IMG/VR virus record: IMGVR_UViG_2711768004_000007
Source of the DNA: a virus
Taxonomy: Duplodnaviria > Heunggongvirae > Uroviricota > Caudoviricetes
Length of the DNA stretch: 6,385 nucleotides
Strand: one strand, 5' to 3'
Of the stretch, positions 1 through 6,385 are shown in pieces. The translations under genes were made by a program, and so were the position numbers. Within the stretch, counting starts at the first letter, position 1; each line of letters starts with the position of its first letter. The notes beneath the pieces were generated by a model. It saw only the letters and a program-made list of their open reading frames with translations, was not told the origin of the DNA and searched no databases.

Positions 1-107
1 CTCTCGTCTGGGGAATATCTCCCCGGCAGCCTTCAGGGAAAAATATCATCAGATGGCTGCTTAAAAAAAGAACAAATGGTAGTGTCCGCTATTGCCAGTA
101 CACCTCA
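1..107. repeat. Left arm of a 107-bp perfect terminal inverted repeat (partner 6279..6385)
   Basis: Reverse complement of 6279..6385 matches 1..107 base for base; the match ends at position 108 (g here, t in the partner). Confidence 0.9.
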
Positions 108-141
108 GGATAGCGGTCATGTGATGCCGGTTTCCCGGTAA
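1..141 (+). CDS. 3' end of a hypothetical ORF open to the left window edge; shares its first 107 nt with the right-edge gene, then a short unique tail (QDSGHVMPVSR) to TAA at 139-141
   Basis: No in-frame stop from position 1 to 138; internal ATG at 76; identical to the N-terminal region of the 6080..6385 minus-strand ORF through the repeat. Could be a truncated remnant. Confidence 0.3.
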   Translation, partial: LSSGEYLPGSLQGKISSDGCLKKEQMVVSAIASTPQDSGHVMPVSR

Positions 142-286
142 CTCAGCACCGGTATCTGAGTCAACGTTTTCTCTACTGGGTCATTTCCGATACGCCCTGC
201 CTGCTGACAGGCTTTCATCACATCTGAAAATATAGCACCCTGACTGATACTGTAGTACCTAAGGTTCCAGAAACTGTGATGTATCC

Positions 287-314
287 GGCACAGAAAAGCC
301 CCTCCGGAGAGGGC
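287..314 (-). terminator. Weak candidate intrinsic terminator (minus strand)
   Basis: Short GC hairpin at 298..314 (ccctc/gaggg stem, cgga loop, one bulge), followed on the minus strand by UUUUCUGUG. Confidence 0.3.
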
Positions 315-510
315 TGGAGAGTGGCGCTATGTGCCATTGCATGATGCCGGGTGCCTCCCGGTGAATTCAGTACCAGCACCTGAATCCGCGATTATCCCAT
401 ATACCTACTCGCTGATTGCCCCTCCGCACAGGGGGATTCACCATGCCAGTTTCTTTTAACAAACTCCCCGCAAAACAGACAACTGTCAACCGTCTGAATT
501 GTGAGACATT

Positions 511-537
511 TAAAAAAAAGGCCCGCAAAAGCGAGCC
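511..537 (-). terminator. Rho-independent terminator downstream of the tRNA array
   Basis: Minus-strand RNA GGCUCGC-UUUU-GCGGGCC forms a 7-bp stem including one U-G wobble, followed by U8 (plus-strand A8 at 512..519). Confidence 0.75.
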
Positions 538-551
538 AGGGAAAATAAGTG

Positions 552-628
552 TGGCGCGTTGTACTGGATTCGAACCAGTGACCGATTGCTTAGAAGGCAA
601 TTGCTCTGTCCGGCTGAGCTAACAACGC
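552..628 (-). tRNA. tRNA-Arg, anticodon UCU (reads AGA/AGG), 77 nt, CCA encoded
   Basis: Hand-folded cloverleaf: acceptor GCGUUGU/ACAACGC, D stem GCUC/GAGC, anticodon stem AUUGC/GCAAU with loop CUUCUAA, T arm ACUGG-UUCGAAU-CCAGU, discriminator G. Architecture resembles E. coli argU. Confidence 0.85.
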
Positions 629-641
629 ATGATGCAGATAA

Positions 642-718
642 TGGACCGCCATCGGGGACTTGAACCCCGCGCAGCCAGCTTCGAAGGCTGGCGCTCTTTC
701 CTGATGAGCTAATGGCGG
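642..718 (-). tRNA. tRNA-Arg, anticodon UCG (reads CGA), 77 nt, CCA encoded, discriminator U
   Basis: Hand-folded cloverleaf: acceptor CCGCCAU/AUGGCGG, D stem GCUC/GAGC, anticodon stem CCAGC/GCUGG with loop CUUCGAA, T arm CGGGG-UUCAAGU-CCCCG. Confidence 0.75.
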
Positions 719-725
719 TATGTGA

Positions 726-801
726 TGGTGGCCCTTGCTGGATTTGAACCAGCGACCTGGCGATTATGAGTCGCTCGCTCTCACCACTGAGCTAAAGGGC
801 C
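726..801 (-). tRNA. ileZ: tRNA-Ile2 type, anticodon CAU (lysidine-type, reads AUA), 76 nt, CCA encoded
   Basis: Cloverleaf with anticodon loop CUCAUAA; overall sequence closely resembles E. coli ileX (GGCCCcUUAGCUCAGUGGUuAGAGC...GGUUCAAaUCCAGCAgGGGCCACCA) as recalled. Symbol given by analogy to Stx-phage nomenclature. Confidence 0.85.
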
Positions 802-841
802 GGGAGCCGCATAATAACGACGCGTAATTAATTCTTCAATA

Positions 842-4805: not shown

Positions 4806-5087
4806 TTATCCAGTGACGGTAGTCGAGGCTAAGGGCTTTTTTAACCTCGCATCCGCGCCTGCGGTAACACTGAATGAGCCATTCGGCCTGTTCTTCAGTG
4901 CATGGGGGATGCTGGTACCAATCAGATTTAAATGCGTGAGAGCGCCGCCCGTGCCTGCTGGCAAAGACGGCTGAATTATCAGAATTGTGTAGTCTGGAAG
5001 GCAGTGGCTGACAATAGCGCCATTCTCAACGCGCACAGTATAGAGGCCATCTTCACTAAAAATTTCACGTAATTCTTCGATTTTCAT
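4806..5087 (-). CDS. Hypothetical protein (93 aa from ATG 5087), possibly the 5' portion of a frameshifted gene
   Basis: GGAAGG 9 nt upstream of the ATG. A second frame stays open for 97 codons with no start codon from 5025 to the TAA at 4732..4734; see finding. Confidence 0.4.
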   Translation of the reverse strand: MKIEELREIFSEDGLYTVRVENGAIVSHCLPDYTILIIQPSLPAGTGGALTHLNLIGTSIPHALKNRPNGSFSVTAGADARLKKPLASTTVTG

Positions 5088-5169
5088 CAACAGAATCCTT
5101 CCAGATAAATAGCACTCCCCTGTTCGGGGTCCATCCCTCTTCTCCCTGCGCGCTACTTAAGTATTTTTG

Positions 5170-5199
5170 ATTCTATTCCGGCACCATCTAAAACTTCAA
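5170..5199 (-). promoter_or_regulatory. Candidate sigma70 promoter: -35 TTGAAG, 18-bp spacer, -10 TAGAAT
   Basis: Minus-strand hexamers at 5199..5194 and 5175..5170, just downstream of the strong terminator and about 80 nt upstream of the ATG at 5087. Confidence 0.35.
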
Positions 5200-5206
5200 A
5201 CGCGTT

Positions 5207-5239
5207 GAAAATAAAAACAAAAACCCGCCGAAGCGGGTT
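5207..5239 (-). terminator. Strong rho-independent terminator (tR2-like position)
   Basis: Minus-strand RNA AACCCGC-UUCG-GCGGGUU (UUCG tetraloop) followed by UUUUUGUUUUUAUUUUC. Confidence 0.7.
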
Positions 5240-5334
5240 AAGTGTGGGTGCATTGAGGATGCCTGCCCCATCAGAGGTGGCGAGGGATTTCTCCCCCGCC
5301 TGGTCTCTTACTCCTCAGGTTCGTAAGCTGTGAA

Positions 5335-5415
5335 NNNNNNNNNNNNNNNNNNNNNNNNNNNNNNNNNNNNNNNNNNNNNNNNNNNNNNNNNNNNNNNNNN
5401 NNNNNNNNNNNNNNN
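5335..5415. other. Assembly gap (81 N)
   Basis: Run of n characters; true length and content unknown. Flanking sequence suggests a minus-strand gene spans it. Confidence 0.99.
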
Positions 5416-5480
5416 TGAGACAGATAGCCTCAAGCACCCGCTGCAATTCTACTTAACTCTCCTTTTCCCGCAAACCGTTT

Positions 5481-5564
5481 TTATCCCCAGCGGCAAATCG
5501 AATACACCACCAGCGCCACCGCCATCGCAATTCCTACCGTTGTTAATGCTTCAGGCCAGGTCAT
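5481..5564 (-). CDS. 27-aa hydrophobic peptide ([27 protein letters not shown]), putative single-pass membrane peptide
   Basis: ATG overlaps the TGA stop of the upstream 114-aa ORF (ATGA); GGAGG about 10 nt upstream; hydrophobic core of about 20 residues. Too short for the ORF track. Confidence 0.4.
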
Positions 5565-5905
5565 CGTAAAATATCCTCCACGCTTATCAGTCCGTTCCGC
5601 TCCAGATAACTCATCGCCTTATCCGGTAATTTGCAGTCTGGCTTCGCTTTCCTCAGTTGCCAGGTTAACTGCTTTACCAGCATGGTTAACTCATCGACCA
5701 GACGCTGATATCCCACTGGTTTGTATTCATGCAATTTACCGGCTGGCTCTGCTGCCAGCGATACCAGTGCGATTTCCAGAACAGCAATATCCATCTTATA
5801 TGTGCGGATGATGTCATGGTCGATTGTGCCCGGTATGCACAGTCTCTGTGCTTCAATAGTCTCCTCTGCGTGAGCTATTAACTGCTCTCTGGTAAAAGTC
5901 GTCAT
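5561..5905 (-). CDS. Hypothetical small protein (114 aa), N-terminal domain paralogous to the upstream 55-aa ORF
   Basis: ORF with GAAGGGG upstream; start overlaps the stop of the 55-aa ORF (ATGA). Shares an MTTxT(K/R)E N-terminus and IAL(A/V)SL(E/A)AEP motif with it. Confidence 0.65.
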
Positions 5906-6069
5906 GCCGTAGCCCCTTCTTGATATTTTTCAAACCAGAACACAACCGGCTCTGCTTCCAGCGATGCCAGCGCAATCCGTGCCAGTTCCATTTGTTCACC
6001 ACGGGTAAGCCCGTTTTCAAGCGGGTTTTTAATGAACAATTCAATACGTTCTTTGGTAATAGTGGTCAT
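5902..6069 (-). CDS. Hypothetical small protein (55 aa: [55 protein letters not shown])
   Basis: Perfect AAGGAG 6 nt upstream of the ATG at 6069; stop overlaps the next start. Not in the ORF track (under 60 aa). More plausible than the out-of-frame 63-aa ORF 5853..6044. Confidence 0.6.
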
Positions 6070-6079
6070 GTGTTACTCC

Positions 6080-6385
6080 TTAACCCGCAGTGCTTTCAAC
6101 TGATGAGGGGAACAAAATCTTTTCATCAAACCCTGCATTCATATCATGAACAGCAACACACCAATCCATCGACGAACGATTATCAAGAGCCTCCATGATT
6201 TCATCCATGCGGCGTAGGTCATACAGGTAAATGCTTTTATCGCCAATGGTGTAAAAGCCAATTTTTTTCGGTGATGGATGAGGTGTACTGGCAATAGCGG
6301 ACACTACCATTTGTTCTTTTTTTAAGCAGCCATCTGATGATATTTTTCCCTGAAGGCTGCCGGGGAGATATTCCCCAGACGAGAG
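6080..6385 (-). CDS. Hypothetical protein, frame open to the right window edge (5' end outside the window, or start at ATG 6310)
   Basis: ORF track gives 76 aa from ATG 6310, but the frame has no stop through to 6385. The N-terminal part lies within the terminal inverted repeat; unique C-terminal tail ...KKIGFYTIGDKSIYLYDLRRMDEIMEALDNRSSMDWCVAVHDMNAGFDEKILFPSSVESTAG. Confidence 0.5.
   Translation of the reverse strand, partial: LSSGEYLPGSLQGKISSDGCLKKEQMVVSAIASTPHPSPKKIGFYTIGDKSIYLYDLRRMDEIMEALDNRSSMDWCVAVHDMNAGFDEKILFPSSVESTAG
6279..6385. repeat. Right arm of the 107-bp perfect terminal inverted repeat (partner 1..107)
   Basis: Exact reverse complement of 1..107. Confidence 0.9.

Follow-up and report, generated by a model that had tools for sequence, protein, structure and literature searches.

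Terminal inverted repeats on a probable Shigella sonnei prophage scaffold match the ends of two inverted IS600 copies

Overview

The window analysed here, a stretch of 6,385 nucleotides recorded as viral DNA, is almost certainly a scaffold from a short-read draft of a Shigella sonnei-type genome, and it holds a piece of prophage bounded by IS600. The perfect inverted repeat at its two ends is an ordinary and already known feature, namely a common IS600 met at an assembly break.

Identity of the terminal arms

Positions 1-107 and 6279-6385 were confirmed to be exact reverse complements (100% complementary over 107 bases), as had been predicted from the sequence. The repeat goes no further, as base 108 (G) differs from the complement of base 6278 (T). 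The next best inverted pair within the window is only 26 nt long at 73%, so the perfect 107-nt pairing lies far above chance. The two arms are the last 107 nt of the IRR (transposase-3') end of IS600. The left IS600 end (1-107, plus strand) is a 100% match to annotated IS600 with the IS body lying beyond the left edge of the window. The right IS600 end (6279-6385, minus strand) is the IRR of a second copy, which is inverted relative to the first and has its body beyond the right edge. With 100% identity, the 107-mer matches DNA that carries the annotation 'IS3-like element IS600 family transposase', and its best match is at least 99% identical in 3178 records. It was found at 6105 places in 2887 of the 5426 closed E. 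coli genomes, on plasmids as well as chromosomes, and a single genome can have as many as 43. The original prediction was right to see a duplicated repeat here but missed IS600 as the element that was duplicated.

The reference IS600, a member of the IS3 family, is 1264 bp long and its final bases are ...CCAGTACACCTCA. Its ends are of the IS3 type (TG...CA) and form imperfect inverted repeats, where the IRL reads TGAGGTAGCCTGAG... and the reverse complement of the IRR reads TGAGGTGTACTGGC...; the arms of the window start or finish with the IRR. Full copies in closed genomes, beyond the window, contain an orfA/orfB transposase that carries the RefSeq note 'programmed frameshift', and their 385-aa product has Pfam matches to the HTH_Tnp_1, HTH_21 and rve (DDE) domains. 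IS600 is among the five IS that have expanded in all Shigella, and the Shigella reference chromosomes carry 229-348 IS each (PMC7373316). At the level of the element the arms are identical to IS600 insertions in S. sonnei chromosomes, but the window holds only 107 nt of each copy.

Reading frames across the repeat

The repeat had been read as coding sequence shared by two ORFs with different tails. Frame 1 of the left arm does read LSSGEYLPGSLQGKISSDGCLKKEQMVVSAIASTP, followed by the 11-aa tail QDSGHVMPVSR and a stop, while the right arm leads into a 76-aa ORF (6080-6310, minus strand) that reads MVVSAIASTP followed by 66 aa. Both of the frames that cross the repeat are unbroken out to the window edges. 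The frame translated in the original prediction is nevertheless not the coding frame, as the gene that owns this DNA, the IS600 transposase, uses frame 2 (...SRLGNISPAAFREKYHQMAA, then the stop). The annotated transposase CDS terminates 43 nt inside the IS end, and its stop falls at 62-64 in the left arm and at 6322-6324 (minus strand) in the right arm. Just the last 20 codons and the stop of the transposase are present in the window, and the 3' end of orfB accordingly occupies positions 2-64 (plus strand, frame 2) of the left arm. What looks like a 'shared peptide' is the IS600 3' end read out of frame.

Gene content of the segment

The 6.4-kb segment is a piece of a degraded lambdoid prophage where a truncated small gene, hokD, DUF968, RusA, Q, a methylase and three tRNAs follow one another in this order. 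The truncated gene is found in the 76-aa ORF, which is a fusion of 66 C-terminal codons of phage origin with 10 N-terminal codons, including the ATG, that lie in the IS600 end. The 66-codon part is what remains, at the C-terminal end, of a small phage gene that was cut by IS600 and is 87 aa long in E. coli; the intact gene is located at 4131-4394 in locus L003, where the match to the window ends at 4329. Two short phage ORFs, 114 aa and 55 aa long (5561-6069, minus strand), are called in all closed loci and have no Pfam match. Next comes a stretch on the minus strand (5308-5415) made up of an N run (5335-5415) and the 3' end of hokD (5308-5334, ...FTAYEPEE and a stop).

The larger genes, all on the minus strand, encode a DUF968/HNH-like protein (3672-4730; PF06147, E = 2.6e-62), a RusA Holliday-junction resolvase (3291-3671; PF05866, E = 1.5e-16), the late-gene antiterminator Q (2473-3294; PF03589 Antiterm, E = 1.6e-53) and a DNA methyltransferase (842-1900; N6_N4_Mtase, PF01555, E = 7.9e-42) that has a RefSeq-annotated homologue. 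A 65-aa ORF between the Q and methylase genes (2051-2248, minus strand) is also called in closed loci, and it shows a weak TrmB-like HTH match below the Pfam cutoff. The three tRNAs form a cluster (552-801, minus strand) and were assigned by ARAGORN as Arg-TCT (552-628), Arg-TCG (642-718) and a tRNA with a CAT anticodon (726-801); RefSeq labels their homologues as Arg, Arg and Ile. The remaining prophage DNA at 108-551 is non-coding, and a closed E. coli match over 107-330 (99.6% identity) has no annotated feature. This stretch lies between the tRNA cluster and a DUF1737/SASA gene with the lysis cassette, which are located past the IS and outside the window.

The segment in closed genomes

Closed genomes match the window interior exactly up to 107/108 and 6278/6279 and no further; in closed E. 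coli genomes the matches extend over 294-6278, over 107-330 or up to 6278/6279 of the window. Both junctions, together with full-length inverted IS600 copies, were observed in 18 of the 25 distinct S. sonnei-type assemblies sampled. These 18 are closed or near-closed chromosomes in which the IS600 pair lies about 6.4 kb apart, and their interior is 99.9-100% identical to the window. The paired copies are each 1264 bp long and stand in opposite orientation, with the IRR ends facing inward and the IRL ends outward. The two are either identical or have 1-3 differences, mostly at least 285 nt from the IRR end. The source isolate probably has the same full-length IS600 copies, as the closed genomes indicate, and in the window itself each IS600 end is contiguous with its unique flank. 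The exact protein of the 76-aa junction ORF was found on 832 contigs, where it is named Shigella sonnei, Q3Z0Y9_SHISS. The left junction, taken as a 40-mer, had no match in a collection of species-representative genomes, and there is no exact record of the 101-aa ORF that runs from the window edge to its stop. Neither junction was found in any of the 5426 closed E. coli genomes, and seven S. sonnei-type loci have the segment without the tRNA-side IS600 copy.

The target sites differ between the two copies. The tRNA-side copy is flanked in closed loci by GCTATCC on one side and TCCTTCCAGG on the other, and the empty site, GCTATCCTTCCAGG, is present in E. coli ATCC 11775 and in seven S. sonnei-type loci. 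This copy has a 3-bp duplication on both sides (TCC, IS, TCC), whose inner copy in the window is the GGA at 108-110 next to the left IS600 end. Next to the IRR of the right copy, the inner triplet is the GGA at 6276-6278, a native triplet that corresponds to positions 4001-4003 of the reverse-complemented L003. Its second triplet is displaced; in closed genomes it lies 3.5 kb away, where an inverted block has its far end. A simple local inversion was considered as the origin of this missing duplication and was rejected, as the outer breakpoints joined in silico were only matched as halves. The joined breakpoints were never contiguous in the closed E. coli genomes and the halves match separately, so more than a single event lies behind the right side. 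In the closed genomes L012, L029 and L032, the copy next to the truncated 87-aa gene also has a different IRL-side flank, which indicates that IS600 has recombined there with other copies. GGA (plus strand) at both inner flanks was likewise set aside as a meaningful feature, as the two triplets are reverse complements relative to each IS. We treat the shared GGA as a probable coincidence, with each triplet matching its own native site.

Assembly of the window

The N gap mentioned in the original prediction is present and consists of 81 N (5335-5415). In L003, L004 and L014 its flanks are separated by 275 nt, which hold the rest of hokD and its upstream leader. Since 81 N stand in for 275 real nucleotides, the window consists of two contigs joined into a scaffold; the proposed join rests on collinearity with closed genomes. 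A one-for-one masking of the hokD toxin gene was ruled out by the same difference in length. The run is more likely to be a scaffold gap at a multi-copy hok locus because the stretch behind it occurs at a median of two and at up to nine places per E. coli genome.

A combination of genome structure and assembly very likely explains the terminal repeat. In the chromosome, the segment would sit between two complete inverted 1264-bp IS600 copies whose IRR ends point toward it. Because IS600 is a multi-copy element, the assembler would have collapsed all copies into one and ended the contig within the repeat, at a fixed overlap of 107 nt on each side. Equal overlaps into inverted copies would then appear as a perfect terminal inverted repeat on the contig. 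This resembles other repeat-bounded contigs from de Bruijn graphs, in which a unique segment ends in equal overlaps with a collapsed repeat, except that both ends enter the same IS600 end here; the overlaps look like terminal inverted repeats because the two genomic IS600 copies are inverted. The length of 107 nt is most likely an assembler (k-mer) overlap. The paired IS600 copies are nearly identical throughout, so 107 nt is not a natural limit of the repeat, and at the same junction a further S. sonnei draft contig (L014) begins just 47 nt inside IS600. For the exact DUF968 protein the longest contig was 5-10 kb in 1321 collection blocks, and for the exact methylase protein it was 5-10 kb in 1806 collection blocks, which is consistent with a contig that routinely ends in repeats.

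Alternative explanations

Three readings of the repeat had been offered from the sequence. According to the first, it is an artefact of the assembly graph; in its pure form this would mean one repeat copy or none near the segment and no inverted pair in the genome. The arms are equal in length and lie exactly at the contig ends, as is typical of graph overlaps, and an N gap lies inside the window. Both junctions are nevertheless read contiguously in the window and were observed, with complete IS600 copies about 6.4 kb apart and an interior of 99.9-100% identity, in the 18 closed or near-closed chromosomes. What stands of this reading is a collapsed multi-copy repeat at both ends and an overlap as the most likely source of the 107 nt, whereas the pure form, with no real duplication, is contradicted by the closed chromosomes and is highly unlikely. 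The second reading, a real inverted duplication that lets the segment flip, is borne out in the duplication (two complete 1264-bp IS600 copies) and not in the flipping, as no flipped isomer was seen in the loci examined. Homologous recombination between the pair would invert the 6.4-kb Q-methylase-tRNA segment and alter the orientation of Q and the late promoter relative to the lysis genes, with both isomers coexisting. RecA can act on inverted repeats that are 1264 bp long and 99.8-100% identical, the flanks in L012, L029 and L032 show that the local IS600 has undergone recombination with other copies, and IS-flanked inversions have been reported in closed S. sonnei genomes by a survey that inspected only events above 7 kb (PMC12795559). 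However, at all loci with both copies the segment keeps its native orientation with respect to the DUF1737/holin side, and none of the 30 loci examined, which are consensus assemblies that cannot reveal minority isomers, shows the sequence signature of a flipped isomer. The window encodes no recombinase, and the prophage is already degraded so that no selectable function is evident. Coexisting isomers are very improbable. That the segment flips measurably in growing S. sonnei populations through the inverted IS600 copies, reversibly uncoupling Q and the late promoter from the lysis cassette, is also improbable; if it did, the flip would be too small for the 7-kb threshold of the survey and invisible to short reads.

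A switch of alternative C-termini, the third reading, would join a constant N-terminal part to an 11-aa or a 66-aa tail, as in the Mu G and P1 C segments. The frame that had been translated is open across both arms into differing tails, but it is open for only about 45 codons within IS600 and is not the transposase frame (stop at 62-64). The 11-aa tail lies in unannotated intergenic DNA and the 66-aa tail is the remnant of the 87-aa gene that is uninterrupted in E. coli. Since the shared peptide is out of frame and the transposase stops inside the repeat, there is no such switch; it is already refuted by the analysis of the frame and of the empty site, and its probability is practically nil. 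The absence of a recombinase gene from the window, which the original prediction had remarked on, was upheld by the ORF list and Pfam. The serine recombinase closest to the segment in closed genomes, a large serine recombinase of 506 aa, is located about 7 kb outside it. Mu G/Gin, P1 C/Cin and the shufflons likewise have inverted repeats that bound a prophage segment of a few kb. Unlike them, this segment has no serine invertase and no tail-fibre genes, it lacks short crossover sites because the repeats are IS ends, and its apparent common coding part is out of frame in what are the ends of a transposable element. A composite transposon, in which the Q-methylase-tRNA segment would be mobilised as one unit by the IS600 pair, is also extremely unlikely. 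Two complete IS copies do flank the segment as a cargo, but the 3-bp duplication on both sides of the tRNA-side copy indicates that this copy was inserted alone. The outer flanks (...aatttt and tccttcc) share no common triplet (ttt against tcc) and the outer ends are both IRL. The absence of the junctions from the 5426 closed E. coli genomes, and the seven loci with the segment but no tRNA-side copy, also argue against mobilisation as a unit. Two IS600 copies in the chromosome, truncated on the contig by the assembler, remain the preferred explanation.

Implications for Shigella prophages

IS600 is also found beside stx in the defective prophage of Shigella dysenteriae type 1, which resembles the present case in having IS600 in a lambdoid late region. 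The two differ in that no stx is present here and the DNA from the tRNAs to the IS is non-coding. Stx phages carry stx downstream of Q and the tRNAs, and IS600 lies next to that place here. The orfA of IS600 has been placed upstream of stx (PMC7819885). The IS600 copy between Q with the tRNAs and the lysis genes is present in some lineages only and is at most a minor lineage marker. The finding adds nothing new to the biology of Shigella, where the expansion of IS600, the disruption of prophages by IS and rearrangements mediated by IS are already well documented. It serves as a caution that a perfect terminal inverted repeat with open frames on a draft contig can mimic an invertible switch; here it is what two copies of a common IS, together with a probable assembler overlap, leave behind.

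Identity of the terminal repeat

The perfect 107-bp inverted repeat described at both window ends was borne out, as positions 1-107 and 6279-6385 of the 6385-nt window are exact reverse complements. The match stops there, base 108 being G and the complement of base 6278 being T. The runner-up inverted pair in the window was at most 26 nt at 73%, which rules out chance for the 107-nt arms. A search with the 107-mer alone found it in 2887 of 5426 closed E. coli genomes, at 6105 places in total and at as many as 43 in a single genome, on chromosomes as well as plasmids; it is annotated there as 'IS3-like element IS600 family transposase'. 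In the same set, the best whole-window matches span 294-6278 and halt at the right arm, matches to the left flank start at 107, matches to the right flank run to 6278/6279, and neither junction is covered by any of the 5426 records. A full IS600 copy in E. coli E2865, with a 3-bp duplication GCG, measures 1264 bp between its ends IRL (TGAGGTAGCC...) and IRR (reverse complement TGAGGTGTAC...); the 107-mer is the element end, 43 nt past the transposase stop. Both arms are therefore the IRR end of IS600, and the bodies of the two elements extend beyond the window on either side, oppositely oriented.

The inverted IS600 pair in other genomes

A 76-aa ORF (6080-6310, minus strand), with 66 aa outside the repeat, fuses the IS600 end to a cut phage gene and is specific for the right junction; the 832 contigs on record with it carry Shigella sonnei names, Q3Z0Y9_SHISS among them. 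Look-ups with this ORF, the methylase and DUF968 gave 30 loci (L-numbers) in 25 different assemblies, most of which are complete chromosomes 4.5-5.0 Mb in size. Both junctions were observed in 18 of the 25 assemblies, where the interior is 99.9-100% identical to the window on either side of its N run and each junction runs into a complete 1264-bp IS600, the two copies being inverted with their IRR ends inward. The paired copies are identical (locus L004) or differ at 1-3 positions, and the difference closest to the IRR end is usually 285 nt away (117 nt in one genome). Since the copies are near-identical along 1264 bp, the true repeat is longer than 107; judged from these sequences, the genomic inverted repeat would be 1264 bp, with nothing natural stopping at 107.

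Graph assemblers leave neighbouring contigs with k or k-1 bases in common, and 107 is among the k values they use. The draft S. sonnei contig LXVB01000264.1 begins only 47 nt into IS600 at the same junction, and the overlap length therefore depends on the assembly. Furthermore, for both the methylase and DUF968, the exact protein is present in thousands of collection blocks in which the longest contig that carries it measures only 2-10 kb; routine breakage of short-read assemblies at the IS copies on either side would give this pattern. The N gap was also present as described, with 81 N at 5335-5415. It replaces 275 nt that take in the upstream leader and the greater part of the hokD toxin gene (window region 5308-5415), and that are ungapped in closed genomes and in LXVB01000264.1. 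E. coli genomes have this stretch at a median of 2 and at up to 9 places each, and its multi-copy nature probably caused the contig break. Because 81 N stand for 275 nt in closed genomes, the window appears to be a scaffold of two contigs, in the order that the closed genomes indicate to be correct.

Assembly artefact, inversion or alternative C-termini

The original prediction offered three readings of the arms. An assembly artefact is right insofar as a repeat has been collapsed at both ends, but the pair itself is real, as the two full IS600 copies in 18 of 25 assemblies show. A real inverted duplication likewise stands, since such a pair flanks the segment, but not the flipping it was thought to allow. 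In every two-copy locus the segment has its tRNA end towards the IS600 copy that borders the native DUF1737 flank with its IRL, and none of the 30 loci showed the signature of the flipped isomer, so that only the native orientation is seen. No recombinase gene is encoded among the window ORFs. Rare RecA-dependent inversion between the 1264-bp repeats may occur, consensus assemblies being the basis here; nothing in the 30 loci suggests a switch.

The third reading was a switch of C-termini, and the inward frames with 11-aa and 66-aa tails are indeed present. In the left arm, frame 1 reads LSSGEY...ASTP followed by QDSGHVMPVSR and a stop. However, this shared peptide is out of frame, because the transposase is read in frame 2 (...RHSRLGNISPAAFREKYHQMAA*) and terminates at 62-64; frame 1 is not part of any annotated gene and remains open inside IS600 over just some 45 codons. 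The 11-aa tail corresponds to intergenic DNA, unannotated in closed genomes, and the 66-aa tail represents the C-terminus of a small phage gene, encoding 87 aa in E. coli WP5-S17 (L003 4131-4394), which IS600 interrupts after about 21 codons. Gene callers report the 76-aa fusion because an ATG is present in the IS end. The observation is thus confirmed and its interpretation partly right, in the collapsed repeat and the real inverted duplication; the element is IS600. Features of this kind are already known, and the organism has been studied thoroughly; neither inversion switching nor alternative C-termini are supported by any evidence.

Prophage context

The window represents the part of a lambdoid prophage concerned with late regulation. 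Its genes, all on the minus strand, are two small ORFs, the hokD 3' end, DUF968 (PF06147), RusA (PF05866), antiterminator Q (PF03589), a 65-aa ORF between Q and the methylase, an N6/N4 DNA methylase (PF01555) and three tRNAs. The same order is found in closed E. coli genomes, where one side continues into a DUF1737 gene, holin and lysozyme, and DUF4014, DUF977, replication genes and cro/cI precede the segment on the other. The tRNA at 726-801 (minus) was called Met (anticodon CAT) by ARAGORN and its RefSeq homologue in E. coli ATCC 11775 is tRNA-Ile; it probably represents the Ile tRNA of the phage Ile-Arg-Arg cluster, of the Ile2 type with a lysidine modification. Adjacent 114-aa and 55-aa ORFs are linked by a 29-nt direct repeat (86% identity, 5745-5773 and 5948-5976) and both encode an ...IAL.SL.AEP... 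motif, and may therefore be partial paralogues. The hokD-DUF968 interval (about 4730-5330) is about 250 nt longer, with an extra 'Rem' ORF, in L005 (11418-12023), L010, L018, L021, L023, L024 and L033; the window carries the shorter variant.

The IS600 copy beyond position 1 separates the Q/tRNA module from the DUF1737/SASA gene (flank 108-551), at the site occupied by stx in Stx phages. The stx gene is absent from the window region, whereas in S. dysenteriae type 1 IS600 adjoins stx, just upstream of it (PMC7819885).

History of the IS600 insertions

The right-end IS600 has no duplication across it, and a DUF977 gene that is inverted and truncated adjoins its IRL. The partner of its target triplet was found about 3.5 kb off, where an inverted block of about 1 kb beyond the right window end has its distal limit (region L004 6543-8768 and L008 6963-8768). 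This block comprises DUF977, a hypothetical gene, DUF4014 and the 5' end of the cut gene, and carries an IS1 as well. A single local inversion was rejected, as the joined breakpoints are contiguous in no closed E. coli genome. The IRL-side flank differs in three closed genomes, being alike in L012 and L032 (another phage region) and different in L029 (tail-fibre-assembly genes), which indicates that this locus has been a breakpoint of larger, IS600-mediated rearrangements. In line with this history, closed S. sonnei genomes are reported to contain inversions flanked by IS (PMC12795559), and IS600 has expanded in all Shigella (PMC7373316). In addition, the closed genome CP022672.1 (L034) shows continuing IS accumulation in the prophage remnant: another IS3-family element has inserted into the 76-aa fusion ORF (L034 3667-4835), and the interval from the methylase/tRNA region to the IS600 copy holds about 1.35 kb of additional DNA (L034 ~10400-12500).

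The left-end IS600 is a simple insertion, reading GCTATCC-IS600-TCCTTCCAGG in closed loci. Seven S. sonnei-type loci, HE616528.1 among them, have the empty site GCTATCCTTCCAGG, as does E. coli ATCC 11775, and the insertion is therefore polymorphic between lineages. Among the 25 sampled assemblies, the site at window 107/108 is empty in seven (L005, L010, L018, L021, L023, L024 and L033); L005, L010 and L018 instead carry an IS600 in the same inverted orientation about 3.5 kb farther on, beyond the holin/DUF1327 genes. The presence or absence of the left-end IS600 could serve as a lineage marker.
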